From Emiliania huxleyi CCMP1516 (taxonomy: Eukaryota): DNA of 64,000 nucleotides. Of this stretch, positions 9,048 to 61,719 are shown piece by piece. Positions within the stretch are counted from its first letter, which is position 1. Each line of letters opens with the position of its first letter. Made by a program: the position numbers and the translations under genes. The notes under the pieces were generated by a model, which was given only the letters and a program-made list of their open reading frames with translations, was not told the origin of the DNA and ran no database searches. The DNA lies in NCBI RefSeq assembly GCF_000372725.1, contig NW_005202368.1:418293-482292 (forward strand). Direction: 5' to 3'.

Positions 9048-12000
9048 TTACCCCTCGAGCGCCCCGATCGCCTCCGTCACCTCGGCAACTAGCCGCGACG
9101 CCTCCCCCTCGCTGCGCGGCCCGTCCCTCCTCCACCTCGCCGCGTCGTGGTGCCTCGCCGCGTTCGCCCAGATGCGCAGCGAGTGCAGCTGGCTCCGCAG
9201 CTCGGTCGGCAGGCCGCACTCGCGGTGCCAAAAGTTGATGCGCTCCTCGAAGCTGTCGGGCGCCGCCGCAGAGCGCGAGGCGTAGACGGCGTCGAGGCGC
9301 GGCATCAGCGTCTTGAATGCGAGCATCATGTTGTCCTGGATGCGCGCCTGCGCGTCGCCGCCCGTGCGCATGCCGCGCACCTGCACCGAGAGCGGCGAAG
9401 GCTCGTACCCGGTGGTGCGGGCGGCTGTCGCAGCGGCCTCGTCTCCAAAGGCCGGCGCAGCTTCTTCCACCCCCGCCCCGCCCCGCGCGCCAGACAGCAG
9501 CGCCCGGAGCGTCAGCAGCGCCTCGGGCAGTGTGGGCCGCTTGCGCAAGCTATGGTGGCAGAGGCTCTTCTGCCCGTCCCCCGCCTGCGCGAGGTCCTTT
9601 ACTGCGCGCGCCGCGTCGACTGGCCAGCCCGCAGCCACATCGGCGAGCTTCACTGCGTCGATGTCGGTCCAGTCCTCCTCGAACTCGTCCTCGCACCGGT
9701 CGGTGAGCTGCACCTCGGAGCGGCTGGTGAGGCAGACGAGGAGGGTGATGCCGATGGCGTAGCCGTCCGTCTTGCTCGAGTACTCGCCCCCCTTGGTGAT
9801 GGAGGGGCAGAGGTAGCCCGTGGACATGTAGAGGGCAGTCGAGCGGCAGCGAACAGACGCGTCCGGCCGCTGGTCCTTTGCGAAGCCCGTGTCGGCGAGG
9901 ACGGCGGTCAGCTTCTCGTCGAGCAGGATGTTGTCTGGCTTGACGTCGCGGTGCACGATGCCCTTCGAGTGGAGGTAGACGAGCGCCTCGGTCGCCTCGC
10001 ACGCGACACGAACGCGCTGCTGCCACGTCAGCGGCCTCGGCGGCTCCACCATCCCCAGCCGCCGGAGCTGCGCCGCTCGGTCGGGATCCGAGATACGCAG
10101 CCGCGCCTCGAGCGAACCGCCGCGCATCAGCGGCGAGAGGAGGCAGACGCCGTCGGGCGAGAGGCAGTAGCCGAGCAGCGGCAGCAAATGCGGGTGGCTC
10201 ACCGCCTTGAGCAGCTTCACCTCGAGCTCCGCCCGAGACAGGCCGCCCGACTGGCCCGACTTTGCCCGCTTGACGACGAGCGGCAAGTGGCGCAGCTGCG
10301 GCGGCGCGGCGAGGGAGAGGTGGAGGTCGGCCGACGCCTCGTAGACGCGGCTGAAGCCGCCGCTGCCAATCAGCTTGCCCTCTGCAAACCCGTCGGTAGC
10401 CGCGGTGAGGTCCGACAAGGCTAGCTCGACTGGCCGAGCAACAGCCGCCTCCGCCGCGGCTGGCGCGGCGGCGACAGACAGCTCTCCCAGCTTCGACTCT
10501 GCCGCGCTCACCTCCTCGGCCAAGGCAGGCAGCGCGCCCACGTGCGGCCTGGCGGCAGCGATGCCCGCTCGGAGCGCGGAGGGGCTGTCTGCGGTGTCGA
10601 GCGACTTGAGCGCGCCCATCGCCGCGCCATGCGCCTTGCGCAACCGCTGGCTGTCCCGCCTCCGCGCCTCCTTGAGCTTGTCGCGAACGCGCCTCGCCTC
10701 CGCCAGCACAGCCGGGCTCGCGAGGCTGCTGCACGCCTCCAGCGCGCTCGCCACGCCCTCGTACGAGCCAGCGGCCACGGCCTTCTGCAGCGCCTCGTCC
10801 GCCGCAGCGATGGCGGCTGCGTTGGCGGGCGGAGGAGATGGGGCTGGCGGTGGGGTTGGCGGCTGCAAATCGGCGGTAGCGCTGGGGCCAGGCGCCGCGT
10901 TGTCTGCCTCGCCGCCGCCGCTCTTCTTCTTCTTCTTCTTGCCCTTCTTGCTCTCCTTGGCGCGCTCCTCCTTCTCCGCCTCCTCCTCCGCCAGCAGCGC
11001 CTCGGCATGCCGCGCCGCAGTCGCCTCTGCCGCCGCTCTCACCGCCTCCCTCGCCGCTGCCTCCGCCTCCGCCTCCGCCGCCGCCGCATGCTCCTCGATG
11101 ACGTGCACGCACTCGGCGCAGCCCTCCTCCTTGGCCAGCTGCAGCGCCGTCTTGCCGTTCTCAGCGCGCGCCGCCGTGTCTGCGCCCGCCGCCGCCGTGT
11201 CTCCTCGAGGCCGTGTCCGCGCCGCCGTGTTTGCGCCCGCCCGCAGCAAGCGCCGCACGACGGCGGTGTGGTTGAAGTAGGCGGCGAGCATCAGCGCGGT
11301 GCAGCCGTCGCTGTTCTGCAGGTTGAGCTCCGCGCGGAGCTTCAGCAGCAGCTCGACCTCCCGCTCGTTGCCGAAGCTGGCGGCGTGCATCAGCGCGGTG
11401 AAGCCGTTGCCGTTCTGCGTGTTGATCTCCGCGCCGCGCCGTATCAGCAAGTCGACCACCCGCTTTTGGCCGCTGCGGGCGGCGGTCATCAGCGCGGTCC
11501 AGCCTTTGCTGTCCTGCTGGTTGATCTCCGCGCCGTGCTTCAGCAGCAAGTCGACCACCCGCTCGTGGCCTTCCTGGGCGACGATCATCAGCGCGGTGAA
11601 GCCTTCGTTGCTCTGCAGGTTGATCTCCGCGCCGTGCTGCAGCAGCAGCTCGACCACCCGCTCGTGGCCGAAGCTGGCGGCGCTCATCAGCGCGGCGAAG
11701 CCTTCGTTGCTCTGCAGGTTGATCTCCGCGCCGTGCTGCAGCAGCAGCTCGGCCAACCGCTCGTGGCCGTTGCCGGCGGCGCCCATCAGCAGCGTGAGGC
11801 CGCTAGTCTCGCCTCTCTCGTACGTCGCGTCGGCCCGCCCGCCGCCGTTAAGCCACGCCAGCACCGCCGCCTCCTCGCCTCGCTCAGCCGCTGTCACGAC
11901 ATCATCGAAGACTGCCGCAGCACCGCTCGACGCCCGCTCCGCAGCCAGCGACAGATTGTCCGGCCGCACTCGCACGCTCTCGCCGCCGCCCTCTAGCGCC

Positions 12001-12194
12001 ACCGCGTACCGCCCGCCCTCGAAGCTCCGCGCCTCGCCCCGCTGCCCGTTCAGCTCGGGGCGGGAGGAGAGCCCGCCGAGCACAATGCGCTGGCCAAGGA
12101 GCGGCGCGTCCACAGCTGCTGCTGCTGCGCCCAACGAAGCGCCGTCCGCCCCTGCCCGGCCCTCCGCAGCCACGGCTGTCCAAGGCGCCTCCAT
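9048..12194 (-). CDS. SH3-like + ankyrin repeats + coiled coil + IRAK/RLK-type protein kinase + C-terminal HEPN (DUF4145-like) domain protein, 1048 aa, no introns
   Basis: About 7-8 ANK repeats. Kinase motifs IGSGGFSRVY, LVVKR, HRDVKPDNILL, DTG, STGYLCP and DGYAIG, plus RLK-like LSDLTAATDGF and LTWQQRVRVA. C-terminus FEERINFW...LRSQLHSLRIWANAARH. Confidence 0.9.
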   Translation of the reverse strand: MEAPWTAVAAEGRAGADGASLGAAAAAVDAPLLGQRIVLGGLSSRPELNGQRGEARSFEGGRYAVALEGGGESVRVRPDNLSLAAERASSGAAAVFDDVVTAAERGEEAAVLAWLNGGGRADATYERGETSGLTLLMGAAGNGHERLAELLLQHGAEINLQSNEGFAALMSAASFGHERVVELLLQHGAEINLQSNEGFTALMIVAQEGHERVVDLLLKHGAEINQQDSKGWTALMTAARSGQKRVVDLLIRRGAEINTQNGNGFTALMHAASFGNEREVELLLKLRAELNLQNSDGCTALMLAAYFNHTAVVRRLLRAGANTAARTRPRGDTAAAGADTAARAENGKTALQLAKEEGCAECVHVIEEHAAAAEAEAEAAAREAVRAAAEATAARHAEALLAEEEAEKEERAKESKKGKKKKKKSGGGEADNAAPGPSATADLQPPTPPPAPSPPPANAAAIAAADEALQKAVAAGSYEGVASALEACSSLASPAVLAEARRVRDKLKEARRRDSQRLRKAHGAAMGALKSLDTADSPSALRAGIAAARPHVGALPALAEEVSAAESKLGELSVAAAPAAAEAAVARPVELALSDLTAATDGFAEGKLIGSGGFSRVYEASADLHLSLAAPPQLRHLPLVVKRAKSGQSGGLSRAELEVKLLKAVSHPHLLPLLGYCLSPDGVCLLSPLMRGGSLEARLRISDPDRAAQLRRLGMVEPPRPLTWQQRVRVACEATEALVYLHSKGIVHRDVKPDNILLDEKLTAVLADTGFAKDQRPDASVRCRSTALYMSTGYLCPSITKGGEYSSKTDGYAIGITLLVCLTSRSEVQLTDRCEDEFEEDWTDIDAVKLADVAAGWPVDAARAVKDLAQAGDGQKSLCHHSLRKRPTLPEALLTLRALLSGARGGAGVEEAAPAFGDEAAATAARTTGYEPSPLSVQVRGMRTGGDAQARIQDNMMLAFKTLMPRLDAVYASRSAAAPDSFEERINFWHRECGLPTELRSQLHSLRIWANAARHHDAARWRRDGPRSEGEASRLVAEVTEAIGALEG

Positions 12195-12574
12195 GGGAGA
12201 AGGCTCAGGTTAAACAAACTCTGCCTCGCCGGGCAGAGCAGACGGCAGAACAGACAGACGGCGTCGACCGACTCCCAACTCGAGAAGCTGTGAGCCGCTG
12301 TTTTCACATAAACGCACAACTCCGGACCCAAGACGCACAAGCACAGACAGTCGAGAAGGGGGAGAGACAGCAACGACAGTCAGAAGTCAGCGCTGGGTCC
12401 CAGGAAGGCGAATGCGATGACGGCCTCTAGTGTGAGCTCTAGCTGTTTTCACGGTGCTCAGACTGCCGGCAAAGTGTGTGTGTGTGTGACTGGTGTGTGT
12501 CGTCGTGGTTTTAGGTATATTGTTGGCACAAAAGTCGTGGTTTCGTATCAAGAATACTCACTCACTCACACTGC

Positions 12575-14779: not shown

Positions 14780-15245
14780 CGAGTGAGTGAGTGAGTATTC
14801 TTGATACGAAACCACGACGACACACACCAGTCGACTCGCATCGCTTCGGTTGCCTCCATGAACGGCGGAGCTATTCTCGCGCCCACACCACACCTGGCTC
14901 CAACGTGGACACGCCCATAGCTCTAGGTCTTGCATGGCATCAGAAGCTTTATCTCTGGGCCCCGAAAGGCATCTCTAGTAGCATCGTTACGCATGCCCCC
15001 TCCCCCCAGGGCGCATGCGCCTCACGTCTCGCCAGAGCATACGCCCTTGGTGTGCGACGAGACGAGTTTTTCGCCATGCAGCGAGCAGCAAGCCGCCCGC
15101 CGCAAACAGCCGGAGGCATCGCCACAGCGCTGTCTGCGCCGCGGTCCCGCACCCGTCGACGAAGCTCCCCCCGCGGAAGGCCGCGCGTGGCCACGCCTTG
15201 TCGATCGAGATGAGCGCGCCTGAAGCTCGCCCACCTACTGCCCCC
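14780..15245 (-). repeat. Dispersed repeat family A (diverged copy, (ACTC)n tail)
   Basis: Reverse complement of 37285-37757, 42780-43124 and part of 31082-31403; all full copies end ...GTCGTGGTTTCGTATCAAGAAT plus a simple repeat. Confidence 0.85.
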
Positions 15246-15261
15246 CCCCCACACACACACA

Positions 15262-15680: not shown

Positions 15681-17004
15681 CGGGTCGGCCGCCATCGCGG
15701 TCGGCGCCACCACCTCCTCCCGCCCCCCCCGCAGCCACTGCCGCGCGGCCGCCAATGCGACCGACCCCCCCCCCCCCGCTTCCCCGACCCCTCCCTAAAC
15801 GCCCCCGACAGCGAAGCCCACGCCGCGCGCGGCACCACCGACTCTACCTCCGACCCCAGGGCCTAGGCGGCCCGCCATGAGATCTAGCCGTGTGTGCTGG
15901 CGTCCGGGTCCCAGCGGGTTTTCACGTATGTGTGTCTCGCGCCTTGCGGGGGGGAGCGGAAAGGAGGAACCTCTTCCCAAGAGCACCACTCTTGGAGCGC
16001 CGCCACTACCACCCAGAGCGCTGCAAGCAGCGCCGGGCAATGGCGGCTTACCGCCCACCCAGCCCCCCCTTCGGCACACCCCGGCAGCCAATGTGTGACG
16101 GCTCGAACCCGCTAAGCCATCCCGCAAGCGGATGTATGTATGTAGACGGAATGGACAAGTCATGCCGCGGTCGGCTGAGCGCTGCATACACATGCAAGAG
16201 TGCCCCTGGATGGAGCAGTACCTCACCTCGCCGCTGCCCGAGGATCGTCACGCCCGAGATGTGGCCATCGCCAACGCCGCCGCCGCCCTCACCGCCGCCG
16301 AGCATACCCTCAAAACCACCGTCGACCGCGTCCGGGCCGGAGGCGGCACCGACAGCGACATCACAGCGGCCAGAGACGCCCTCGACGCCGCCTACCGAGC
16401 CGACGCGGCTGCTCGGCAACCAGTCAACTTCCCAGTCAACTATGGTATTCGAAGAATGGAACCCATCTCGTGTGCCACACAGTCACTTCGTGGCACACCC
16501 TGCGACCTGGGAAAATGCGTCAATCAAGTCGGACAAGCGTAACTTCTTCAACCTCACGGGACAGCCCCTGGACGGCTCGTACGCCTCCAGCGTGGGCATC
16601 CTCGTGCACGCCGCGTGGCCGGATCGGCACGCCTCCACGCGATCTCGACGTCAATGGGCGGGGCTACTGCGGCTGCGGCGCCTCTTTTTGACAAAGCTCG
16701 AGCGGAGCGGCGCGCCACGCGAGAGCCGCGACGGTCGATGCGCAACATGGTCGAGGCCTTCCGAGCCAGGCAACAACATCAACGGACAACGCGCGATCTA
16801 GCCCGGCCCTCACACTTACGGGGCTCTTTTAGCTCTTTCACGACCCTGACCGGCCCGTCGATCTACGATCTCTCTCGGCACCTGTGGCTGACCAGTGCGA
16901 GTTATTTCCCCTGTTCTCTATGTCGCTTGTCGGTTTTGTCTTACATCTCTCGAAGGAGCACGAAAGGGTACAGGGTTCTATCCCGTCACACGCACACTGT
17001 AGAT

Positions 17005-19466
17005 CTACACGAGCCACGGCGTGCACGTCCCGTTGTGCAGGGCCGGGGACTGCTGCGGCTCGTGCGGCGCGCACACGCCGCGGCTGTCCACGGCGCTCGC
17101 GTTGATCGCCTGCACGAGGGCGGTCAGCCGGCGCACGAGGCCGGGCTGGGAGGACGCGAGGTTGGTACTCTCCGTGGGGTCGCTCTCCAGGTCGAAGAGC
17201 ATCACCTGTGCGCAGACCATGGGAGGGCTCCTCGGTCCGACGGAGGCCGCGGCTGCACCCGCGTCCGAGGCGCGCACGGAGTCGACTGTCCACGGCCCTG
17301 CCGCCGTCGCGCTGTTGTTGTGGTCCGCGGGGCACGGCGGGCCTAGAACCATGCCTCCAGCGTATAGCGTGGGTTCATTCCCGTGGGTGGTGTGGTAGCG
17401 GTCGGCGGGGCACATCCTGTTCATGTGTTGAATTCACAATCATGAGGGCGGGAGGACGGTCTTTATGGGGAGATGCGGGGAGATATGGTGAGATGTTCCG
17501 CTTCTAGGATGGCCGGCCTGCGCACCAGATACGGGGAGATACGGGGAGATACGGGGCGATACGGGGCGATACGGGGAGATACGGGGAGAGATACGGGGAG
17601 GTATGGGGAGATATGAGGAGATGTGCTGCTTCTAGGACGGCCGGCCCGTGCACCAGAAGCCGTTGCCGATGCTGCGGTGCCGGTTGTCGTCCGCGCCTAG
17701 GGTTCGGGTACCGTGGTGGTAGGGGGATGGGTTCGGTACCGTGGTGCTGCGGTGGCGGTTGTCGTCCGCGCCCGGGTCGCCAAGGAGGAGCTTCCACCTC
17801 CCCTGCCGCAGGGCGTAGTACGGAGTCGCGTGCTGGTCGCCTAGGGTTCGGGTACCGTGGGGGTAGGGGGATGGGTTCGGTACCGTGGGTGTGGGGGGGG
17901 CGAGTCGCGTGCTGGTCGCCGGAGCAGACGAAGCCCGGCGGCCGGTTGCTGTACGGGCTAGCGAGCGGGTCCGCCTGTGGAGATGGTAGTCATACCCATA
18001 CTTCAAAGAGCCATCCACTCCTTTTGCTACGGGGAGATACGGGGAGATATCGCGCAGCACAGTCTGCCGTGCTCGAGATACGGGGAGATGTGGGGAGATA
18101 CGGGGAGATACCGGGAGATATCGCGCAGCACAGTCTGCCGTGCTCGAGATACGGGGAGATGTGGGGAGATACGGGGAGATACCGGGAGATATCGCGCAGC
18201 ACAGTCTGCCGTGCTCGAGATACGGGGAGATGTGGGGAGATACGGGGAGATACCGGGAGATATCGCGCAGCACAGTCTGCCGTGCTCGAGATACGGGGAG
18301 ATGTGGGGAGATACGGGGAGATACCGGGAGATATCGCGCAGCACAGTCTGCCGTGCTCGAGACACGGGGAGATGTGCGGAGATACGGGGAGATGTGGGGA
18401 GGTGTGGGGAGATGTGGGGCCTCGAGCAGCACAGTCTGCCGTGCGCCCGCCCCTCCGCGGGAGAGCATTGGCCACTGCGAGACGCCATCGAGCGCGGAGC
18501 CGGCCTGTTCACAGCAGGTGCGGTGTGAAGAGGCGCCGTGGTGTGAGGAGACGCCGCCGAGCGCGGAGCCGGCCGCAGCGAGCTCCCCCGCATCTCCTCC
18601 CATCGCGGCGATCAGCGTCGGCAGCACATCGACGGTGTGCACGATCCTAGAAGGTTCCTAGAAGGTTCCTAGAAGGCTCCTAGAAGGTTCCTAGCACATC
18701 AACGGTGTGCACGATCCCCGCCGCCGTCGCGCCGCGCTGGCTGCGCGCGATGCCAGCGCCTACCCGCGGCGCGAGAGAGCGGATGGCGCAGGGGGCCTGC
18801 CCGCCCACGTGCTCGGAGCGATGGCGGCGCCGGAGACGAAAGCGACGCCCCGCAGTCCCCCCTCCCACGCCGTGCACTTTCCGCCTCGCAGCGGCCAGTT
18901 CTGCCCCCCGGTCCACCCGCCGCACGCCGGCGTGGCGGCGCCGTTGTCCTACGTGCTGAATACGCCAACCTCAGGGCGTGAATACGGTATTGTGCAGTGT
19001 CTTCAGAGCACCGCGTGAAGACGAGGGAAGCGAATGCAGTGAATACAGCGGAATACGGCCGAGTACAGCTGAATACGTGCCTTCTCGAGCGCTGGTTGGG
19101 AGACATGAACACGTATGCTGGTTGGGGAGACATGCACGTGTTCCGCTTCTAGGGCCGTTGTCCGTCTGGAACCAGAGGAGCGTATCGTCGAGGATGCCTG
19201 GGGGAAGGTTCCGAGAAGGTTCCGAGAAGGTTCCGAGAAGGTTCGAGACGCTTCGTGGAGGATGCCTAGAAGGTTCCGTAGGTTCCTAGAAGGTTCCTAG
19301 AAGGTTCCTAGAGGGTTCCTGCGGTGAGGGAGAGGGAGAGGGAGGGAGGGAGGGAGGGAGAAGGAGGGAGGGAGGGGGGGGGGGGGGAGGGAGGGAGGGG
19401 TTTAGGGAGGGAGGGAGGGAGGGAGGGAGGGAGGGAGGGAGAGGGAGAGGGAGAGGGAGAGAGAGA

Positions 19467-19518
<52 letters not shown>

Positions 19519-21362
19519 TCGGCAAGGATGCCCTTGCGCCGCAGCGCGCGCGTCACGTTGCCAACGCCCTCGTCCAAGCAAGAGAGCATGCCCGCGAAGA
19601 GGTTCCGCGCCTATATTTCTTTTCCGCGCGCGATTTCTTTTTTCCAAGCAAGAGAGCATGCCCGCGAAGAGGTTCCGCGCCTATATTTCTTTTCCGCGCG
19701 CGATTTCTTTTTTCCAAGCAAGAGAGCATGCCCGCGAAGAGGTTCCGCGCGTTCGTCCCCTCCACCCTGGCAAACTTGTACGGTGCGACGTACTGCGCCG
19801 GCACCTAATTAATAATTAATTAATAATTAATTAAACTTGTACGGCGCGACGTACTGGGCCGGCACCTGCTCCACGTGCGGGGGAGCTCGCCCGAGCGACA
19901 GCCGAGAGGAGCCGAGAGGCAGCCGAGAGATGGCCGAGAGATGGCCGAGAGACAGCCGAGAGGCAGCCGAGAGGCAGCCGAGAGGCAGCCGAGAGGAGCC
20001 GAGAGGCAGCCGAGAGATGGCCGAGAGATGGCCGAGAGACAGCCGAGAGGGAGCCGAGAGGCAGCCGAGAGGCAGCCGAGAGGCAGCCGAGAGGCAGCCG
20101 AGAGGGAGCCGAGAGGAGCGGAGAGGAGCCGAGAGGCAGCCGAGAGGCAGCCGAGAGGAGCCGAGAGGCAGCCGAGAGGCAGCCGAGAGACAGCCGAGAG
20201 GCAGCCGAGAGGCAGCCGAGAGGCAGCCGAGAGGCAGCCGAGAGGAGCCGAGAGACAGCCGAGAGGGAGCCGAGAGGAGCCGAGAGACAGCCGAGAGGGA
20301 GCCGAGAGGCAGCCGAGAGGCAGCCGAGAGGCAGCCGAGAGGCAGCCGAGAGGCAGCCGAGAGGCAGCCGAGAGGCAGCCGAGAGGCAGCCGAGAGGCAG
20401 CCGAGAGGAGCGGAGAGGAGCGGAGAGGAGCCGAGAGCAGCCGAGAGGCAGCCGAGAGGAGCCGAGAGGAGCCGAGAGGAGCCGAGAGGAGCCGAGAGGA
20501 GCCGAGAGGAGCCGAGAGGCAGCCGAGAGGAGCCGAGAGGAGCCGAGAGGCAGCCGAGAGGCAGCCGAGAGGCAGCCGAGAGGCAGCCGAGAGGAGCCGA
20601 GAGGAGCCGAGAGGAGCGGAGAGGAGCGGAGAGGAGCCGAGAGGAGCCGAGGGGAGCCGGGGTGAGCCGAGGTGAGGTGAGGTGAGGTGAGTTCGGCGCC
20701 TGGTCGGGCACATGCACTGCTTGGTACGGGAGGTAGAGGAAGAGCGGCGCGGCCGCGTCGTGCTCGCGGATGATCGACACCGCGCGCCGAGTGAAGAGGT
20801 GCGTCGAGTACTCGCCGACCGCCTCCCAAGCGTGTCGCGAGCAGCCGGCGCCGCAGTCTGGTCGCGAATCATCGTGCAAGTCAAACCCTCCGCAGTCGCC
20901 CTGATGGGTGTAGTAGTCTTCGTCGCCAGAGTAGTAGCCGAGGTACGAGTCGAAGCCGCGGAACGTGGGCGTGTGCTCCCAGCGGTGGTACCCGAGGTGC
21001 CACTTCCCGACCGCGTGGCACTTGCTCCGCGCGTCGACTCGCTTGACAAACTGCGGCAGCAGCGTCTCATCCAGCGGGAGCGACCAGTTGTTTTGACTCG
21101 TGAGGACTCCCGACTGGAAGCCATAGCGGATGTTGTAGCGGCCGGTCAGCAGGGCGCCCCGCGTCGGGCTGCATGCGCGCTGCACGTAAAAGTGAGCCAG
21201 CTTGACGCCGGCTGACGCGAGCTTGTCAATGTTCGGAGTCGCGATCTGGCTTCCGGCGTAGCCAAGGTCCGCGTAGCCGAGGTCGTCTGCCACCACGAGG
21301 ACCAGGTGCTTCGCCGGCGGAGACGCGGCGGAGAGGGCGGGAGCGGCCGCAGTGATGAGCAT
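17005..21362 (-). CDS. Arylsulfatase B/I/J-like sulfatase (S1 family), about 12-13 introns
   Basis: [27 protein letters not shown] (formylglycine motif), [70 protein letters not shown]. Exons traced by hand: 21362-20700, 19804-19751, 19610-19532, 19197-19163, 18948-18831, 18759-18717, 18646-18574 and onward. Confidence 0.92.
18030..18420. repeat. Intronic tandem array of about 71-nt units, each an exon fragment (ARQTVL) plus GGGGAGATAC repeats
   Basis: About five near-identical units, each containing GCAGCACAGTCTGCCGTGC, which also occurs in the exon at about 18426-18445. Confidence 0.9.
19895..20690. repeat. Intronic 10-11 nt minisatellite (AGCCGAGAGGC/AGCCGAGAGG)n
   Basis: About 800 bp array inside the first sulfatase intron. 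Confidence 0.95.
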
Positions 21363-28090: not shown

Positions 28091-29015
28091 GCCACCGCCA
28101 CCGCCGCCACCGCCACCGCCGCCACCGCCGCCACCGCCGCCACCGCCGCCGCCACCGCCACCGCCGCCGGAGGGGCCAAGGCCGCGTATCTCGTGCGCGG
28201 CACAAGCGGGGAGGAAGAGCAGCTCGCCTGCGCGAGATTCAGCCGAGAGATGGAGATATGGCCGTGATGCGGCCGAGGTACAGCCGAGAGGCAGCCGAGA
28301 GGTAGCCGAGAGGTAGCCGAGAGACATAGACATAGCCGAGAGGCATTCAAGACATACCACCCTCGTCCCAGGCGAACCAACTATGAGCAGCTCGCCTTGA
28401 CCGAGGTGCAGCCGAGATGTGGCCGAGGTGCAGCCGAGGCAAGCCTCTCTGATCAAATCCCTCATCACACACACACATCACAAATGGGCAGGAGATCAGA
28501 ATCTCATCGATACCAGCCCCTTGCGCTCTCTTCACACCGGCGCTCTCACAACAGACCGTGGGTCACACGAGATATGGGGAGATATGGGGAGATATGGGGA
28601 GATATGGCGCTCTCACGGCAGATTGTGGGTCACACGGGGCCGACTACAGTGTGCAGCGGGGAGGCGGAGGGCTACTCGTACCGGGAGATATGGGCAGATA
28701 TGGGCAGATATGGGGAGATATGGGGAGTACCTGGACCGAGTGTGACCTCGTACCGGGAGATATGGGCAGATATGGGCAGATATGGGCAGATATGGGGAGA
28801 TATGGGGAGTACCTGGACGGAGTGTGACCTCGTACCGGGAGATATGGGCAGATATGGGCAGATATGGGGAGATATGGGGAGTACCTGGACGGAGTGTCAC
28901 CTCGTACCTTGCCGCCAGCGCCTCCCGCAGAGCGGGATCGAGCTCACCGCCGCTCCCATCGCCGCCGCTCCCCTCGCCGCCGCCACTGCCGCCGCCCCCG
29001 CCCCTGCCGCTGCCA

Positions 29016-29066
<51 letters not shown>

Positions 29067-30622
29067 GAGTCTGCCGCCGCCTCGAGGGCGCGGCGAAGGG
29101 CGAGGCGCGAAAAGGCCCACGACATGCCTGAGAAGAAGAAGAAGAAGAATGAGAACCGTACGAAGACCACGCGCAGCAACAGCAATCGCCTTGTGGGTCG
29201 ACGGCGTGTGGCCGGAGCGCGCGCCAGTGGCTCGGCGGGAAGACTAGCACCTCCTTCTCCCCGGAGAGCTGCAGCTTAATTAATTAATTAATTAATTAAC
29301 TAAGTAATTAATTAACACACTCCTTCTCCCCGGAGAGCTGCAGCAGCGTCCCATCGGTGACGTCGATATGGAGGGGCTCAGTGTGGCCCGCCTACGACGT
29401 GTCTGGGAGGTGTCTAGGAAGTGTCTAGGAGGTGTCTAGGAGGTGTCTAGGAGGTGTCTAGGAGATGTCTAGGAGGTGTCTAGGAAGTGTCTAGGAGGTG
29501 TCTAGGAGGTGTCTAGGAAGTGTCTAGGAGGTGTCTAGGAAGTGTCTAGGAGGTGTCTAGGAGGTGTCTAGGAGGTGTCTAGGAGGTGTCTAGGAAGTGT
29601 CTAGGAGGTGTCTAGGAGGTGTCTAGGAAGTGTCTAGGAGGTGTCTAGGAAGTGTCTAGGAGGTGTCTAGGAGGTGTCTAGGAGGTGTCTAGGAAGTGTC
29701 TAGGAGGTGTCTAGGAAGTGTCTACGAAGTGTCTAGGAAGTGTCGTAGGAAGTAGTGGGCCCGCCGGCCCCCACCACGCGTTGACCAGCGGGCCGTACAG
29801 CGCGTGCCTGATTAACTAAGTCATCCGTGGTGAATGAATGACCGAATTAGTCGATGAGGCGGCCGTACAGCGCGCGCCTAATACCGCACCACGGAGCCTG
29901 AGCCCACACCGGAGTCGATGCTCTGGAGGTATCGTACTAGGCCGTAGCAGCGCGTGCATGCGCAAGCCGCATGCTTCGCCGACGGCGTCGAAGAGCGGCG
30001 CGAGGACGGCACCGGCGCGCGACGAGGCGACATCGCTTTGGACGTAGCAGTCGTTGGAGGCGGCGATGCCGGACCTGTTCACAGCGGGAAGAGCTGCGAA
30101 GAGACGCTGTTTGCAGAAGGCTCCCCGCCGACAACGACGCCGAACCTGTTCACAGCAGTAGAAGTGGTGAAGGAGACGTTCGCCGCAGCCGTTGGCGGCG
30201 GCGATGCCGGACCGGATCGAGTCAGCGAAGAGCGGCGCTGTCGTCGTCACCGTGCTCCGCATGTGCTTCCGGCCCGTCCACCGATCGGGACTCGTCGCGT
30301 ACCCGTCTCCACCGTGGATGCGGCACGTCAGCGGCAGGTGAGCGCCGACCGCCGCGGCAAAGCCGCTCAGCCCCCAGTCCTCTCGGGCGAGCGCGCCGAG
30401 CGTGCCCTCGACGAGCAGCGGTGTGCCCTCGCGCTGGTGCCGGGCAAACACGCGCGGCGAAAGCTGCGTGGCGTGGATCCGCTCCACAGCCCGGCCGGTG
30501 CGAGGCACGAGGCAGAGCGGCCGCAGCGGCGGGCGCGGGAGCGTGGATCGCCTGTCGATGGCGTGACGCCGGCTCGCCCACGAACTGCGCACTGTGAAGG
30601 CGGCAGTAGTGCACTCTGGCAT
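27866..30622 (-). CDS. JmjC/cupin-8 family 2-oxoglutarate Fe(II) hydroxylase, multi-intron, with poly-Gly tracts
   Basis: Spliced reading gives NAWWGPAGHTEPLHIDVTDGTLLQLSGRRSVLVFPP...VTLRPGELLFLPACAAHEI...SVNRFW (HxD...H triad), plus N-terminal GTPLLVEG. Confidence 0.8.
29405..29750. repeat. Intronic 11-nt minisatellite (GGTGTCTAGGA/AGTGTCTAGGA)n
   Basis: Seen directly inside a JmjC intron. Confidence 0.95.
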
Positions 30623-30904
30623 GAGGTGGAACGAGGCTGCTCTGAGGAGCGGGCCGCGAGCAAAGCAAACCACACGGGCGTCTTCGCTGTTTATTCACAG
30701 CACGCCTACCCTGGGGTCGCCTCGTGAATAAACGAGTTCTGGCTCGCTGCTCTTACTGCAGCCGCCTCCGAGGCCGGCGCTGGCTGGCTCACCTCGCCAG
30801 TGCTGTCCAAGCCTGCGAGAGGCGTGTCGGCTCGCCGCCTGCGTCGCCCGCGGCGGGCGCGCGTGGCGTGCCGCTGGTCGGGAGTGCCCAGCAGGCTGTG
30901 AGTA

Positions 30905-31403
30905 TGTGTGTGTGGGCTGCTCCGAGGGGGCCCTCTGTGCGATCCGACGGGTAGGGGGGCTGTGCCCGGGCGGTGTCCGGTGTGGAGTCCCCTTCTGATC
31001 CCGCCTGGGATGTTGGGTGTGAGGTTGTGGCGGCTTCGATCCCAAGGGGGGGAGCTGATCCCACTCAATAACCAACTCTCAGGGGCAGTAGGTGGGCGAG
31101 CTTCAGGCACGCTCATCTCGATCGTCAAGACGTCGCTACGCGCGGTCTTCCGCGGGGGGAGCTGCGTCGACGGGTGCGGGACCGCGGCGCGGCCAGTGCC
31201 GCGGCGAGGCCTCCGGCTGTTTGCGGCGGGCGGCTTGCTGCTCGCGGCGATGGCGAAAAACTCGTCTCGCCACACGCCAAGGGCTTATGCTCTGGCGAGA
31301 CGTGAGGCGCATGCGCCCAGGAGGGGAGGGGGCATGTGTAACGACACTGCTAGAGATGCCTTTCGGGGCCCAGAGATAAAACTTCTGTGATGCCATGCGT
31401 GAC
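30905..31403 (+). repeat. Dispersed repeat family A (3'-truncated copy)
   Basis: Near-identical to 37108-37606. Confidence 0.9.
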
Positions 31404-33036
31404 CTCCCCCCCTCCCCCCCCCCTCCGGCCGCGGCCATGCAGCATGCCCTAACACTAAGTCGAGCAGCGCCCGCTCGGTGTTGCCGAAGGCGACAAAAGC
31501 CCCCTTCCAGCCGAGCCGGTCGCCACCCTTGCACGCAAGCGAGCTCGTGAGTTTCAAGTCGCCAACGAGGCGCACATGCCCTTTGCCGATGTTCGCCGCC
31601 GCCACGTCAGGTTGTTTTGGGTTACTGTAACTGAGGTGTGCAGTCGGCTCCATCTCGATGAGCATGCCCCACGCCGAGCGAAGGGTCTTGACGAGTCGTT
31701 TGAGCAGGTATTTGTGTCGTGTCGCGTGCTTCGCACGCGGGTTGACCATTGCGGCATCGCCGAGTTCTTCGTGCGGCTTGCCGTTTGGCGCCTTCTTGCC
31801 CGCCTCCACCGCCTGGCAGGCAACATCGAGCGGGAGGCCGAGGCGGCGCTGAACTGTAATGCGCATCGCCCACGTCTCCATCTTCATATCATCCCGCATG
31901 GGGATCGCATTCAGGAAGGCGCCAGCCGACGGTGTACCGCCGCTGCGCCTGCTGTAAGAACTCGCTGGTAGACGAGAACTCCGGAAGAGGCAGCAGCTCC
32001 GCCGCCGGCGTAAGCTTGGGCGGGTGGTAGCGGCGCCGTCGCACCGCCTTGGTCTCCTGGAAGGGCCCGACGACGTCTTGGTATAGCGTGCGCCCGTCCC
32101 ACTCGCGCCACGTCTTGCCGACCTCGTCGCGAAGGGCGCGGAGGTGTTTGTGAGCCTCCCGAAGCTCGTCGAAGCGCTCTCCCGGCGCGAGGGCCAATGG
32201 CTCGTGCAGCTCGCGTATCGGCCGCGTGACGAGGGCCCACGTGCCGACCCACGCCGCCTCACGGATGTCCATGGCACTGGTCAGGCCCATACCGCCCTGA
32301 GGGGTGGCCCGTCTACCGTCTACCGGTAGACCGGGTAGACGGTAGACCATTTGGTAGACGAGTCTACCGGCAGTCTACCGGTAGACCGTAATGAACCTAC
32401 GACCCCAGTCTACCGGTAGACTTGGTAGACCGCGGTAGACTGGTCTACCCCTTTTTCAGCCGCCGAACGGTAGACCGCCCGCCGGACGGTCGGTAGACCG
32501 CCTCGGCCGTTTGAATATGCAGCCTCCAGTTCTCCACTCTGGCGCCACTTTGGCAGACGAGCGCCGGCAGATGCCCTCGCGGCCTGCCGGCGAACGTCCG
32601 TCCGGCGAGAACGCGCGATGAAAGTGCGGTCTGCCGCGCGGGCGAAATCTGCCGGTGAGAGAGGCTGTTGAGCGCGGTCGCTGTGAGCTTCACCTCATGC
32701 CATTTCCGTGCGAGGCAGCTCCGTGTCTTTTATGAGATCAAATGAACGTCTTTACACACTCATCGGGCGGAACCGCTCACTGCAGAGCGCCGCCCTCTCG
32801 CGGCTCTCGAGAGCGAGTTTTCGCCAGACAGCCACACGTCCATTATGGCGCGCGTTCTCGCCGGACGGACGTTCGCCGGCAGGCCGCGAGGGCATCTGCC
32901 GGCGCTCGTCTGCCAAAGTGGCGCCAGAGTGGAGAACTGGAGGCTGCATATTCAAACGGCCGAGGCGGTCTACCGTCCGGCGGCGGCGGTCTACCGTTCG
33001 GCGGCTGAAAAAGGGATACTCGAGTCTACCGCGGTC

Positions 33037-36220: not shown

Positions 36221-37107
36221 TGCGGACGTCGCCGCGGCTCGCCTCTGCCGCGGCGGCTGCTGCGCGCACGCGGCGGCGCCGCTCTCTCGCGAGACGGCTG
36301 GCGACGCGGCTCGCCGCCGACGTACGGTGCGCTCGTCCGACGGTCCGCAGCGTGGCGTGCGCGGCGCTGAGCGCCGCTCTGCGAGCGCCTCTGCGCCTGC
36401 ACTGCCTGTCTCTGTTGCTGTTGGTGGTGGTGGTACTGCTGCTGCTGGTGCCGATGCTGCTGCTGGCGCGGCGCGGCTGTGCGACTGGGCTCGACGCGCG
36501 CGTCGCGAGCGTCTGACGCGGCGGGCGGCGTCGGGCAGGTGCGCTTCTCTCTCGGGTGGTGGTGGTGGTGCTGCTGCTGCTGCTGGTGGTGCAGATGCTG
36601 CTGCTGGTGCGGCGCGGCTCTCCGACGCGACTCGATGCGCGCGTCGCGGCTATCTGACGCGGCGGGCGGCGTCGCGGGCGGCAGCGGTGGCGGCTCGCGG
36701 GTGGAGGTGGAGGCTGGTGGCTGTGGTGGACTTTGAGTTTATTTCATGGTCGTGTACGGGGACCGGGGGGTCAACCGGGAGGCAGGGGGTTCAACCAGGC
36801 GACGGAGGACCGTGGGCCATCGCGGGGACCAGCCCGTCCGGAGGGCGAACCCGGCAGATCCGGATGGTCTCACGCCGGTGGGTGGCACCGAGGCGTCTTG
36901 GACGCTCAGCTCTACCTTAAGCTCCTGAGGGGCGCGTGGTTGTAACCACGTAGTATGACTACAACCCACCACAGACACCCTCCCCCACTCCTCACGTGTG
37001 TTCACACCCTCACCCTCTCCTCTCTCCTCTCTCTCTCTCTCTCTCTCCTCTCTCTCCTCTTGTCTGTGCTGTCTGCCTGACTCAGGCACTCAATCTGCCG
37101 ATGCGTG

Positions 37108-37757
37108 ATTGTGTGTGGGCTGCTCCGAGGGGGCCCTCTGTGCGATCCGACGGGTAGGGGGGCTGTGCCCGGGCGGTGTCCGGTGTGGAGTCCCCTTCTG
37201 ATCCCGCCTGGGATGTTGGGTGTGAGGTTGTGGCGGCTTCGATCCCAAGGGGGGGAGCTGATCCCACTCAATAACCAACTCTCAGGGGCAGTAGGTGGGC
37301 GAGCTTCAGGCACGCTCATCTCGATCGTCAAGACGTTGCTACGCGCGGTCTTCCGCGGGGGGAGCTGCGTCGACGGGTGCGGGACCGCGGCGCAGCCAGT
37401 GCCGTGGCGATGCCTCCGGCTGTTTGCGGCGGGCGGCTTGCTGCTCGCTGCGATGGCGAAAAACTCGTCTCGCCACACGCCAAGGGCTTATGCTCTGGCG
37501 AGACGTGAGGCGCATGCGCCCAGGAGGGGAGGGGGCATGTGTAACGACACTGCTAGAGATGCCTTTCGGGGCCCAGAGATAAAACTTCTGTGATGCCATG
37601 CGTGACCTAGTAGTGTCCCCAGCTATGGGCGTGTCCACGTTGGAGCCAGGTGTGGTGTGGGCGCGAGAATAGCTCCGCCGTTCATGGAGGCAACCGATGC
37701 GAGTCGACTGGTGTGTGTCGTCGTGGTTTCGTATCAAGAATTCTCTCTCTCTCTCTC
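37108..37757 (+). repeat. Dispersed repeat family A (longest copy, (TC)n tail)
   Basis: Matches 30905-31403, 42780-43124 and the reverse complement of 14780-15245. Confidence 0.9.
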
Positions 37758-38230: not shown

Positions 38231-41200
38231 TCAGGCCGAAGCAGACTGCTGCGCGGTGACGTCAACTGCAGCAGCAGCGGAGTGGCTCCGCCTGGCCGCG
38301 CTGCTCACCAGCGGCTCCGAGTCGCGATGCCGCGCGACGGCGCCACCGCCGTACAGCAGGGTGGCGAGGCACGCGCCGCCGACGGCGACGACGGCGACGC
38401 AGATGGCGCAAGCGGTGCGCGCGCTCACCTGCAGCACCGACAGAGACGGAGTGGCGGGCCTGCCCCGGCAGCATCTAATCTCTCTCCTCCGATAGCCCCC
38501 CTCCGAACCCCCCCCCCCCCCCCCCCCCCCTTCACCTGTGGTAGCACCGAGAAGCCGACAAACGACGACAGCGCCGAAGTGAGCTTGAGGTGTGCGAATG
38601 GTCCAACCGCACCCGCGCCCGCATCCGGCCCGCCCCTCGAAGCTGCAGGCGCGGGCGCCGCCCTCGCCGCCCCAACCATGCTGCGCCCACGCCCGCCGCG
38701 CGTGCCGCGCGTGCCTCCCGGGAGGGAGAGCGCGGGCGAGGTGCGGCGGGAAGCGCGCGGCGCGTGGCGCGGTGTCGCCATCTCGCCAACTAGCGCCTGC
38801 TCCGGGAAGGTTCCGAGACGGTTCCGAGACGGTTCCGAGACGGTTCCGAGACGGTTCCGAGACGGTTCCGAGAAGGGCCTCGGCTAGCCTCTCGGCTAGC
38901 CTCTCGGCTAGCCTCTCGGCTGCCTCTGGCGACATCTCGGCTCTCTCGGCGAGATCTCGGCTGCATCTCGGCGAGATCTCGGCTGCATCTCGAGCGCCAT
39001 CACGGAGGTTTGCCACACAGCAACGCCGACGCCGTACAAGAGAAAAATGCCCACCCACGCGCCACCGCCGGGCGAAGTGCACGAAAGCGGCAGCGCCGAC
39101 GGCGCCAGCGGTGGCTCCGCCGCCAGCGGCAACGGTGGCGAAGGCGGGAGGCCGCGTTCGCCGCCGTCGCTCGCAGCGGGTGGCGGTGTCGGCGGCAGCG
39201 GAGGAGGAGGCAGCGCGGCGCAGGCAGAGCCTGCGTGCGGAATACGCAAACATGAGGGGCGGGACCACGGCATAGCGCAGAGCCTTCAGAGCACCGCGTG
39301 AAGACGAGGGGGCACGAGGGCAGTGAGTACCGCTGGAAGACAGCCGAGTGCAGCGGAGTGCGTGTCCTCTCGAGCGCTGGTTGGGGTACAAGGATTGCGT
39401 GTTCCGCTTCTAGGGCCCGCTGCTCCTGCTCACGAGATACGGGGAGATACGGGGGGAGATACGGGGAGATATTCCGCGTCTAGGGCCCGCTGCTCCTGCT
39501 CACGAGATACGGGGAGATACGGGGGGAGATATGGGGAGATATTCCGCGTCTAGAGTCGCCGAGCCCGCCATCGCCGCAGCCGCTGCGAACGCGACAGCCC
39601 CGGCGGCGAGGGCGAGGGCGCGACCAGAGGGGTGGGCGCGCGCCATGTAGGTGACTGCGACGGCCACGCAGCCGGCGAACAAGCCGGAGAGAGCGAAGTA
39701 CCTGCGCGCAGGTGCAGCCGTGAAGAGACGCCGTTCACGGCGGGCCTGCGGGCACCGGTGAGAGCAAAGGACCACCCCGCCCGACAGGAGGGCGGGGAGG
39801 ACGGTCTTGTGCAGCGTATTCAGAGCACCGCGTGAATGCGAGGACTACGACTACAGCGGAGAGCGTGTCCTCTCGACCGCTCGTTGGAGTACAAGAGTTG
39901 CGTACTCCGCTTCTGGGCAAAAGGGCCATCCAACCCACGGGGAGATACGGGGAGATACGGGGGAGATACGGGGAGATACGGGGAGATGTTCCGCTTCTAG
40001 GCAAAAGGGCCATCCGACCCACGGGTTGGCCTGGCCGGGCGGGTTCGGGCTGGGCGCGAGGGAGGCGACCACCTAATCGGGGCACAAAGGGGATCTGATG
40101 AGGGGAATAAAGGGGGTATACGGGGCATGAGGGGGTAACGCGGGTTCGGGCTGTGCGCGGGGTACAAGGGAGGCGTCCGCCGCCGGATGAGAGGGCCATC
40201 ATGGAATAGGGGGTACAAGGGGGTACAAGGGGTACAAGGGGGTACAAGGGGGTACAAGGGGCGACCACCGGGAAGAGAGCCGTCATGGAATAGGGGGCAC
40301 AAGGGGGTACAAGGGGGTACAAGGGGGTACAAGGGGGCGACCACCGCCGGGAAGAGGGCCGTCATGGAATAGGGGGTACAAGGGGTACAAGGGGGTACAC
40401 GGGGGTACAAGGGGGTACAAGGGAGGCGACCACCGCCGGGAACAGGGCCGTCATAAGCCCGAACGCGACGTTCGTCGGAGTGAGGAGGACGAAGCGGTGG
40501 TCGCAGAGCGTGGCCAACAGGCTCCCCTCCCCGCCGCTGCCTTGCGGCTGGCCGGGACCCGTGTCGCTCTGCCGCTCGCCCGGCCGCGCGGACAGGTCGA
40601 TCACGCTGGACATGGCGACGGTGCAGCCGAGGGCGAGGGCGGTGTAGGCGCCAAAGAGGAGCTGCGGGGCCTGCGGGAAAGAAGGGGGCGCGCTGTGAGC
40701 GGCGTCTCTCCGCCGGTGGTGCGACTCTGAAGAGCCGAGGAGCTGCAATGCCTGCGGGAAGAGGGAGAGGGAGAGACCGGCCAGCTGCTTACCAAAGGTG
40801 AGGGAGAGCTGGAAGAAGAGCGCGAAGAGACCCGCCTGTTCACAGCCGGCGGTGTGAAGAGACGCCGTTCACGGCTGGAAGAAGAGAGCGGGGCGGCCCG
40901 CCATCAAGTCGAGCGAGTCTCGCTCGCCCTCCGCCGCTGCCTTCTCCGACGCAGCGCCCGCCTGTGCCCACAGCCCGGCAGCTGGAAAAGGAGGGGTAGG
41001 AGGCGGGCCCCTCCCGGCTGCGGAACAGCCACGTGTAACGTGTGGGATCGGGGTCGTGGCATCAGGGGTGTCGCATCAGGGGTGCAGGGTCGAGAGTACG
41101 AGTATGCAGTGGGATCGAACGCCCATGTGAGACATGGGAACTCGCCGACGCGCCGCCCGCGAAAGTGCCGTGAAGACGCGTCTCTGACTGCAGAATCCTC

Positions 41201-41977
41201 GGATAGAGGCCGCCGCCCGCCGCCGCAACGCCCTCCACTGAAGGAGAGCCGGGAGGAAGAGGAGGAGGCGCCCCCGTCGCCTCCGCCGCCCTCGCCTCTG
41301 TCGCCCTCGCCGCCGCCTCCGCCTCCGCGCCTCCTCCCTCCCCTCCTCCTCCGCCGCCCGCCCCTCCTCCTCCTCCTCCACCCCCTCCTCCTCCACCACC
41401 ACCAACCCCACCCCCACCACCACCTCCTCCTCCTCCTCCTCCTCCTCCTCCTCCCACGGACGCGCGGCCCTTTGCCTTGCTGTACTCGACCGCGCTTGTC
41501 GTGTAGTATGCCCCCTGCGCCGTCCAGAGCAGAGCGCCTACGCGACGGTTCCGAGAAGGTTCACGGAAGGCGCCGCGGCATGCGCGCTGCCCCGCGCAGA
41601 GCACCGGCGAGGCCACCGAGCGCTCCGGCGGGGTAGAGGACGGTTGGGCTCGGCGCCATGTACGCGGCCGTGTACACCGCGTACATCAGCATCGACGCGA
41701 CCAGCGAGCGCTTCACTCCGGCGCGCCGCACGAGCGCCGGCGCCACGAGCGTGCCGAGAGCGAAGAAGAGGTAGAGCACGGCGCTGACAGACGAGGCGAG
41801 GTGGTGCTCGACCACCTCGTGTGAGATGATGATCGTCGCGGAGATGCAGCCCTCCAGGATCGCGAACGAAGCAGAGAAGACCAGCGCGTTGCGCATGAGG
41901 TCGCGTGGAGAGTAAGCAGGCCGCGGAGGCCGCACGCCGCCGAAGCCGTCGTCGTCGCTGAAGTCGGTTGAGGCCAT
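38231..41977 (-). CDS. UNC-93-like MFS membrane protein, multi-intron
   Basis: RNALVFSASFAILEG, AVLYLFFALGTLVAPALVRRAGVKRSL, GALLWTAQGAYYT (UNC-93 signature), DHRFVLLTPTNVAFG and further hydrophobic exons. Confidence 0.8.
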
Positions 41978-42779
41978 GTTTGGCGCCTTGAAAAATGGCG
42001 AGTCCATGTGTTGCCGCCGAAAGCCGGCCGACCGAGAGCACCGTCACAAAGAAGAATTTTACCTTCGCGCGCACTGGCACTAACACAGGCCTTGGGTTGT
42101 CCGTTTTCTTTCTTTCTTTCTTTTTAACACAGGCACAAAAATAATTTTATAATATCCGCTTGGGGGAAAAAGTTTTCGTGAAATCGCACACGCATGAATC
42201 ACACGACAGACGGCGTCCTCGCCACAAAAGCCGCCGTCCGAAATCCCCTCTCCCGACACCCGCCCCATCCCTCCCCGGTCCCCGCCCCGCCCTGCCCCAC
42301 CCGACCCTCCCCGGACCCTCCCCAAACCCCCCCCCCCCCACACACACACACACCCTCCCCGACGCCGGGGAGCTAAGAAGCGCACCCAGCGGGCCGGACG
42401 ATTGGTATCACACTGTGTCGGCTTACGGACTAGAGAGCCCTCTATCTATCTAGCCCTGTGGGGGGTGCGCAATCCTTGGGATAGTCCGCGCTTTGGGTTT
42501 CCCCTAGCTGCGAAACGCAACAAAAAAATCTCTCTCTCGAAACGCCCCCTCTACTCGGAGCTAGAGATACGAGAATACGCACCGCGCCTTCTAGGGAGTT
42601 TTGTTGTAAAATTCTTTTCATGTTTGTCGCACAACTATTAAATAACCGTCGCCAAAAATCGCACGCCGGGAATCTGTGGATACCAAGTAACCCCCGCCCC
42701 CGCCCGCTCCCATTGCCGCCTCGCTCCACTAAGCCCCGCCTGCTCTCGGCGCAGCCATGTTCTCCTGCAAGGCCGGCTT

Positions 42780-61590: not shown

Positions 61591-61719
61591 GTTGGGTTCA
61601 CCATTGTCTGGGTTCAGGGTGAAGGGCGGGCATGCCGGGTCAAGCTGAGACTAATGATCGAGGCACCAGGGGTCGTTCTTCGCCCACAGCAGCAACTGGC
61701 AGAGCAGGCGCAACGACGC

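Follow-up and report, generated by a model that had tools for sequence, protein, structure and literature searches.

Among the genes on a 64,000-nucleotide (nt) stretch of the Emiliania huxleyi CCMP1516 genome (contig NW_005202368.1, positions 418,293 to 482,292; this whole stretch is called the window here), an intron-dense, arylsulfatase B-like gene raises the question of how its introns came into being. An earlier note, made from the letters alone, had proposed that most of them begin with a copy of the start of the following exon and continue with a filler ending in AG, the duplicated target supplying the donor and the insert supplying the acceptor. The copying of the next exon's start into the intron start is real and pervasive in the DNA that we examined: over half of the checked introns open with a 9- to 38-base copy of the exon that follows. 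More than one mechanism is responsible for this, since a fixed-repeat introner, which we call family A, stands next to a set of short filler families with much longer copies.

The structure of the sulfatase gene is listed in Table 1. When its 12-intron model was aligned with ten close haptophyte-like homologues (62 to 76% identity), a junction-sized gap was found at none of the 12 sites, in agreement with the proposal that splicing restores the protein. Exon 1 is 100% identical to EMIHUDRAFT_457393 of E. huxleyi CCMP1516, and over 437 aligned residues the complete model shares 97% identity with the CCMP1516 public model, which points to this species or a very close relative, in another allele or strain. 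Because of the exon copies inside the introns, public gene model P0001 (CCMP1516) fails at this locus, omitting three exons and translating through the copies in introns 9 and 10. As RNA evidence, we used transcript-like contigs from sequencing runs presumed to be RNA, with joints taken among those listed and repeat artefacts excluded; these joints lie on G..AG ends in five genes. All eight sulfatase introns lying fully within reach inside positions 16900 to 19320 (from 18830 to 17206) were seen as joints in two to four of the four runs, each in a single G..AG register, and the junctions of the remaining four (20699, 19750, 19531 and 19162) are based on protein alignment alone. One of the eight (18716) is a GA-AG intron, the GA donor register being the sole one to end in AG; GA-AG junctions have been verified before in E. 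huxleyi (11 of 241; PMC4028052; here and below, published work is cited from parts of the sources). Together with seven introns from a second stretch and two from contig pieces, the eight bring to 17 the number of modelled introns supported by joints.

These 17 introns and the four resting on gap-free protein alignment form a test set of 21 introns from five genes, which was picked by junction evidence, ignoring repeats. The start of each intron was compared with its next exon and, as a control, with the next exons of the other introns (cross pairs; 200,000 permutations), the mirror comparison serving as a second control. At positions 2 to 9, 5.67 of 8 nucleotides matched, versus 2.64 for cross pairs, and at positions 10 to 20, 6.24 of 11 matched, versus 3.13, a result reached in neither case by any of the 200,000 permutations. 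The match remained significant for the nine nonsulfatase introns alone (7 and 38 of 200,000 permutations) and for the 17 RNA-supported introns alone. The mirror comparison gave no significant signal in the same 21 introns (1.86 versus 2.04). Since the control consists of cross pairs, the proto-splice-site confound raised for mite (bioRxiv 10.1101/051292) is removed by design. Taken individually, 13 of the 21 introns exceeded the 95th percentile of the cross pairs and 11 exceeded the 99th, and eight contain copies of 18 to 38 nt. In 17 introns, both GA donors included, the donor dinucleotide is identical to the two bases with which the next exon opens, as expected for a donor taken from the duplicated exon start; exon position -1 is a G, likewise in 17 introns. 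Hence, the description of the pattern as pervasive stands, on the strength of these 13 introns, of its polarity and of the metagenome loci described below, with the prevalence being based on 21 introns of five genes and on 26 loci selected for family A. The range from perfect to degenerate copies might, as suggested earlier, represent an age series.

Within the sulfatase gene, copies could be measured at nine of the 12 introns, and none above chance was present at 20699, 18420 and 17277, so the claim that most of these introns start this way holds. The copy at 19750 is indeed exact, with a measured length of 38 rather than 37 nt, and the reported internal copy at 19865-19833, followed by a TAAT filler, was recovered, albeit with two mismatches. 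At 19531, the copy can be read either as 7 nt exact or as 13 nt with two mismatches. The fillers of introns 9 and 10 are 98% alike over 48 nt. Intron 8 contains an array of a different kind (18028-18393; 71-nt unit, 5.2 copies, 98% identity), whose unit holds 18 nt of the upstream exon with no splice site nearby and which represents a different template-switch geometry.

The fillers are not random DNA; they belong to dispersed, repeated families, which contradicts the earlier description of mixed fillers in the sense of arbitrary DNA. The largest, family A, is approximately 178 nt long and has 17-bp imperfect inverted ends and a fixed 9-nt flanking repeat. Its copy in intron 4 (19153-18949) recurs at four more places in the window (71 to 79% identity, BLAST within the window), and a 20-nt pattern from the A end led to 27 loci in three metagenome assemblies, of which 26 were kept after one duplicate had been dropped. 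Both ends were found in 23 of these 26 loci, two others being broken by contig ends and one having a variant start; the loci have a GC content of 61 to 73%, and their A copies are 80 to 89% like those of the window. Across the 23 loci, repeat identity is 0.82 at a length of 9 nt versus 0.19 to 0.41 at all other lengths from 5 to 15, although 9 nt is indistinguishable from 8 nt plus the G of the inverted end. At least seven of the nine repeat positions match in 18 of the 23 loci; of the five that fall short, two agree with the final exon at 9 of 9 positions once a stacked layer is passed. The inverted ends agree at 11.4 of 17 positions, versus 4.3 for internal windows, and the donors are GC (16 loci), GT (three), GA (three) and TC (one, due to a mis-set offset). 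In viral contigs, a 16-nt pattern from the family A start gave six unrelated chance matches, and patterns from the A end and from family C gave none. Judged by these features, family A would carry one splice site and co-opt the other, with the mRNA restored and, at 19162, a gap-free protein, and it is to all appearances an introner of the miniature inverted-repeat transposable element (MITE) type; every test of membership that could be run agreed with this. By analogy with other MITE-type introners, it may have been moved by a cut-and-paste transposase. With its fixed repeat and inverted ends, family A speaks against the single, variable-length process that had been proposed.

The principle behind family A has been published, and family A adds a new member to an established group: introners with terminal inverted repeats (TIRs) are known from Symbiodinium, Aureococcus and Polarella glacialis (classes 4 to 6, 8 and 10) (bioRxiv 10.1101/2020.10.14.339549; PMC9860276). 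In those, the 3' AG belongs to the element and the 5' end of the duplication provides a GH donor (GA and GC included), and some elements work in both orientations, all of which family A fits fully. Unlike the duplications of TIR introners, however, which measure 3 to 9 bp and are fixed per class, the copies accompanying the short E. huxleyi families are approximately 10 to 38 nt long and sometimes make up over half of the intron.

These short fillers (C, 42 to 43 nt; B2, approximately 62 nt; B1, D, E, F, TAAT and fillers with a 10- to 11-nt period) lie between such repeats in units of 61 to 90 nt (mean of 71 for 30 hand-picked units). Within the window, BLAST found B1 twice, B2 three times (once antisense) and C twice. 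Family C is the most regular, with 12 matches, a core-to-AG distance of 37 nt in all eight copies with an intact core and a donor-to-core distance of 29 to 35 nt (29 to 31 nt in seven of the eight), each locus having its own exon copy (22 to 34 nt at seven simple sites). It also has a 10- to 11-nt direct repeat, situated 4 to 6 nt inward from the left end, a feature that is not general among the fillers. Family B2, with six copies, one of them antisense and yet having an AG end, mostly has a copy of about 15 to 17 nt, ranging lower, and a donor-to-core distance of 8 to 23 nt, and family E has a copy of 38 nt. Copy length and filler length are inversely related over the 30 hand-picked units (r = -0.81), a relation that is partly arithmetic and was not used as proof; among these units, 40899 and 30212 were mis-registered and 49841 has no real copy. 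A long form of C, at L028 3527-3584, is 58 nt long and palindromic with inverted ends, and no clear duplication accompanies it (best, 7 of 11); the idea that this form plus 9 nt would give a 68-nt intron failed on inspection.

Introns also appear to have been hit more than once. At AG|G sites inside 25 introns, a copy of the exon start follows in seven of 28 cases, two of them whole-unit duplications and five of them layers with a different filler; such stacked layers might reflect repeated insertion at the same junction, by analogy with the parallel gains in Daphnia (PMC4202315). Intronic arrays with periods of 68 to 82 nt, near the common intron length (19573-19750, 28675-28908, 39402-39553, 53655-53827 and L028 3913-4116), are likely products of unit amplification between two copies. 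A blind scan of 64 kb of family A loci from the metagenomes (repeats scoring at least 12 at a spacing of 45 to 110 nt, with ten shuffles) yielded 22 long repeats, versus 0 to 5 in the shuffles. The predicted splice register falls at the start of the repeat in 12 of these, never only at its end, inside it in three and at both places in one. The AG possibly comes from the repeat itself in five of the 12, and in L022 1244, 29322 and 57554 both splice sites derive from the repeat, the filler being present as always. The acceptor is mostly supplied by the insert, as had been proposed, with 29322 and 57554 as exceptions. At L022 1877-1945, a 16-nt duplication with a TAAT filler lies across the acceptor of a family A copy and must therefore be a later event, for which an AG of its own was not needed.

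On balance, we lean towards regarding these introns as the product of small, nonautonomous mobile elements, which would duplicate the exon sequence of their target on insertion; one end would be precise, and the second break would be distant and variable. The left copy would supply the GC, GT or GA donor and the fixed end of the element the AG, and splicing would restore the mRNA exactly. Short families would insert with one precise end, their second target break lying far off at a distance that varies (approximately 15 to 17 nt for most B2, 22 to 31 nt for C and 38 nt for E), and selection would keep those insertions that begin their duplication with G[C/T/A] and attain a total length of at least approximately 63 nt. 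Afterwards, the two copies could recombine with each other and so multiply entire units, giving the 70- to 74-nt arrays, and reinsertion at the same junction would stack layers. From the duplications, it seems that these introns were gained recently. Several observations weigh against this reading. The pattern is not universal, with eight of the 21 introns lacking a copy above chance. Pfam found no transposase in 28 open reading frame (ORF) stretches of the window, just an RNase H fragment, and no empty orthologous site was seen, with CCMP1516 model P0001 keeping the copies at introns 9 and 10. Although C, B2 and B1 are multicopy families with fixed ends, D, E and F occur at one locus each in approximately 128 kb, and several fillers are simple repeats or unique. 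The inverted ends of the short fillers are weak (6.4 of 12, versus 5.0 across families and 5.4 in shuffles; 26 units) and clear only in F, B2 and some copies of C and TAAT, and the folding of six fillers gave no support for hairpins relative to shuffles (z from -2.0 to +0.3). Finally, six of the 22 metagenome repeats fit no splice register, which would suit a general repair process. Intron-free homologue ORFs on 5- to 17-kb contigs, where DNA and RNA are indistinguishable, were not used as evidence of gain; in genome contigs, query P0003 and the family C pattern gave no match and no related loci.

Such a repair process, in which staggered double-strand breaks are filled in while capturing or templating abundant repeat DNA (Daphnia type, polymerase theta-like), with no dedicated element for the long-copy class and with splicing filtering the products, is the alternative that we take most seriously, even if we think it rather unlikely. 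It would account for the varying repeat lengths, the simple-repeat fillers, the stacked events, the near-identical fillers in adjacent introns 9 and 10 and the repeats with filler that lie inside introns or across an acceptor (L022 1877 and L019 1158), and the same categories were described by Li et al. in 2014 (PMC4202315). Yet the exon-intron repeats in Daphnia are just 4 to 12 bp long (PMC4202315), family C keeps a constant end and a near-constant length at unrelated loci and family A is plainly a fixed-duplication element. Hardly credible, in our opinion, is an origin in tandem duplication of exon sequence over an AG|GY proto-splice site, in chance similarity of proto-splice sites or in assembly error. 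A minority of cases have both splice sites in the repeat (29322, 57554 and L022 1244), and perfect 70- to 74-nt arrays could be misassembled, but the consensus was controlled for by cross-pair permutation, the signal persists at positions 10 to 20, the structures recur in P0001 and in separate assemblies and the fillers, always present, are foreign to the exon, in contrast to tandem genomic duplication (AGGT).

Two further explanations address the 5' side of the introns. In one, which we consider improbable, no intron is born; instead, the 5' part of an existing introner with a 9-nt duplication is overwritten by exon 2 sequence, through copy slippage or abortive, cDNA-templated intron loss, so that the copy lengthens as the filler shortens. 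This would predict the 5'-only polarity, and it would explain why the left arm of the palindromic long C is absent from short C copies and why the C donor-to-core distance is so tight (29 to 31 nt in seven of eight). The inverse relation of copy and filler lengths would fit as well, were it not partly arithmetic and drawn from hand-picked units; moreover, long C has no clear duplication itself (best, 7 of 11), and B2 copies with intact ends still have repeats of approximately 16 nt, at donor-to-core distances of 8 to 23 nt. The other explanation, target-primed reverse transcription by the enzyme of a non-long terminal repeat (non-LTR) element, would insert intron RNAs after splicing by their AG-terminated 3' ends, truncating them at the 5' side and leaving duplications of variable length, and we judge it quite improbable. 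It shares the observed polarity (a precise 3' end followed by the duplication), non-LTR elements typically leave duplications that vary and the G at -1 in 17 of the 21 introns could be a priming microhomology, were this G not also expected from donor strength. In disagreement with it, the 5' truncation of C is constant rather than variable (donor-to-core, 29 to 35 nt; core-to-AG, 37 nt), the antisense B2 copy is clean at both ends and lacks a parental flank and family A combines a fixed repeat with inverted ends.

If, as we prefer, mobile elements are responsible, which ones might they be? In the 2022 survey by Gozashti et al. (PMC9860276), E. huxleyi has 653 introner elements in five families, with duplications given as "?" or "N", and the 2025 data (PMC12130899, Dataset file 8) list three families of 6, 5 and 45 members with duplications of 2 or 4 nt. 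One of these, Fam24, is approximately 68 nt long, has terminal direct repeats of 10 bp and is listed as "co-opt 5' carry 3'" with a duplication called at 2 nt; it may be our family C, matched by description alone. The listed families average 37 to 70 nt, the 178-nt family A is not among the rows listed and mechanism and prevalence are not described in that part of the work. Mobile elements with long, variable duplications do have precedents, namely, Replitron-1 (PMC10288648), IS1549/IS1634 (PMC2266710) and non-LTR elements, and a cross-kingdom survey reported 4- to 30-bp repeats near splice sites (PMC11782384). Like the short families, Replitron-1/-N1 of Chlamydomonas (Craig 2023, PMC10288648) has one precise and one fuzzy end and variable duplications, and its short direct terminal repeats may correspond to the direct repeat near the left end of C. 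In contrast, it has an RG target and is 0.9 to 3.6 kb long, with no introns reported in the sections considered, and the precise end of the short families abuts G[C/T/A] on the gene strand rather than RG. The haptophyte matches named there are Phaeocystis antarctica and Chrysochromulina tobinii alone, and no Rep HUH (HUQ, Y1) transposase was found in the window ORFs scanned; we take the likeness to Replitrons as a lead only. In Daphnia pulex neointrons (PMC4202315), too, the far side of the insert bears a repeat of the exon end, with secondary insertions and repeated gains at one site, although the repeats are 4 to 12 bp in 33 cases and those of E. huxleyi are longer, strictly polar and accompanied by family fillers. 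The DDE elements IS1549 and IS1634 have long, variable direct repeats (8 to 514 bp) of unexplained mechanism; being bacterial, autonomous and unconnected with splicing, they provide an analogy only.

By its sequence, then, the long-copy class would work as an introner but departs from the fixed, short duplication of known ones, and we did not find this long-duplication variant described; a literature search that left Huff 2016, the 2013 genome paper and parts of the introner supplements outside its scope did not find long polar exon-start copies described for haptophyte introns. A tentative and more far-reaching speculation, which we consider possible but doubtful, is that E. huxleyi possesses a eukaryotic insertion system, as yet undescribed, whose target duplications are long and specific to each family (approximately 16 nt for the 62-nt B2, approximately 25 nt for the 42-nt C and 38 nt for the 32-nt E). 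Minielements too short to splice would thereby borrow exon sequence to reach an intron of 65 to 80 nt, and, together with family A, this system would have built most of the alga's introns, would account for its majority of GC and its rare GA donors and would leave introns that the copies, on recombining, could remove exactly or multiply.

Elsewhere in the window, the earlier list of introns with copies was confirmed in part. Those at 53448, 53655 and 55256 have copies and RNA joints, and 41604 has one by sequence; the copies at 49841 (5 nt), 55380 (5 nt) and 58980 (8 nt with two mismatches) are at chance level, and that at 60806, in a sulfotransferase gene (8 nt with one mismatch), is borderline. 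For the intron at 53655, a second, GC-AG register (53679-53826) fits as well. The 25-nt repeat at JmjC 29318 is real, with 29322-29254 as the sole exact G..AG register; both splice sites lie inside the repeat, so that this is not a case of a filler supplying the AG.

Table 1. Sulfatase gene, its introns and other introns of the window, with the structures found and the basis of each model
Feature	Position	Strand	Structure	Basis
Arylsulfatase B-like gene	17005..21362	-	13 exons, 12 introns, 529 amino acids	Open model and homologue alignment
Sulfatase intron 1	19805..20699	-	GC-AG; long array of 11-nt period, then stacked layer; no clear copy at outer donor	Protein alignment
Internal copy of exon 2 start	19833..19865	-	33 nt, 2 mismatches, right after internal AG; TAAT filler (19832-19805) follows	
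Sulfatase intron 2	19611..19750	-	Two identical 70-nt units, each 38-nt exact exon copy plus 32-nt filler E	Protein alignment
Sulfatase intron 3	19198..19531	-	13-nt copy followed by CT-rich filler; from 19265, a second, stacked layer (13-nt copy and filler of 55 nt)	Protein alignment
Sulfatase intron 4	18949..19162	-	GA-AG; 9-nt exact copy (19162-19154) plus family A introner (19153-18949)	Protein alignment
Sulfatase intron 5	18760..18830	-	71 nt; degenerate 20-nt copy, 5 mismatches	Joint, 2 of 4 runs
Sulfatase intron 6	18647..18716	-	GA-AG, 70 nt; 24-nt copy, 1 mismatch, plus filler of 11-nt period	Joint, 2 of 4 runs
Sulfatase intron 7	18505..18573	-	69 nt; 26-nt copy, 2 mismatches, plus family C filler (18547-18505)	Joint, 4 of 4 runs
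Sulfatase intron 8	17975..18420	-	446 nt; no next-exon copy; internal 71-nt array with upstream-exon copies	Joint, 2 of 4 runs
Sulfatase intron 9	17841..17919	-	79 nt; 18-nt exact copy plus family B1 filler	Joint, 4 of 4 runs
Sulfatase intron 10	17697..17771	-	75 nt; 27-nt copy, 1 mismatch, plus family B1 filler	Joint, 4 of 4 runs
Sulfatase intron 11	17343..17645	-	303 nt; 9-nt copy (1 mismatch) plus A-type 5' end, repeated from 17517, then B2 filler (17398-17343)	Joint, 3 of 4 runs
Sulfatase intron 12	17206..17277	-	GT-AG, 72 nt; no copy	Joint, 3 of 4 runs
JmjC-like intron	29254..29322	-	GA..AG, both sites inside 25-nt repeat; TAAT filler	Sequence model
B2 filler antisense to JmjC-like gene	29878..29940	+	AG end on gene strand, behind 16- to 17-nt exon copy from 29957	Sequence model
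Unit in UNC-93-like gene	40836..40901	-	66 nt; degenerate 28-nt copy plus family C filler	Sequence model
UNC-93-like intron	41538..41604	-	67 nt; degenerate 21-nt copy, 5 mismatches	Sequence model
Intron	53448..53523	+	76 nt; degenerate 29-nt copy (6 mismatches) plus 47-nt filler F with inverted ends	Joint, 3 of 4 runs
Intron	53655..53802	+	148 nt; two identical 74-nt units, each 25-nt exact copy plus filler D	Joint, 3 of 4 runs
Cyclophilin intron	55256..55323	+	68 nt; degenerate 34-nt copy, 8 mismatches	Joint, 4 of 4 runs
Carrier intron	57554..57894	+	Donor and acceptor both in repeated CAG|GC exon sequence (38-nt repeat)	Modelled from ORF
Carrier intron	57951..58159	+	Degenerate 9-nt copy plus diverged family A element (71% identity)	Modelled
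Carrier intron	58980..59048	+	69 nt; weak copy (8 nt, 2 mismatches) plus family B2 filler	Joint, 3 of 4 runs

Some further features of the window deserve mention. Intron 11 of the sulfatase gene is partially retained in contigs of all four runs; at the B2 end of this intron (17345-17368), these contigs agree with one another in departing from the window at five places, and the window carries a distinct allele there. In the 3' region of the cyclophilin gene, a 33-nt tandem duplication (55580-55612; TG..GC ends, not an intron) is missing from contigs of three of the four runs and is a probable length polymorphism. The RNase H fragment (61513-62082; Pfam E value, 1.6e-6) is probably a retroelement remnant. 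By eye, a MITE-like pair of inverted repeats of approximately 150 bp flanks a short core at approximately 32480-32990, and one intergenic repeat has several copies (approximately 14790-15260, 30890-31400, 37100-37740 and 42720-43120). Intron-poor ankyrin genes adjoin intron-dense ones, with an ankyrin-repeat kinase ORF without introns (1,053 amino acids) at 9051-12209 and a related ankyrin gene at 1-2450.

Most introns of most genomes bear no trace of their origin; here, over half of those checked carry one, and the many sequenced strains of this alga make the models of gain (transposition, break repair, retrotransposition and overwriting) directly testable at polymorphic sites. The copies also offer a cause for the published share of noncanonical donors in E. 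huxleyi (56 to 65% GC and approximately 4% GA), the donor being simply the dinucleotide with which a GC-rich exon opens. Lastly, our findings suggest that introner surveys tuned to short duplications likely undercount families with long copies.

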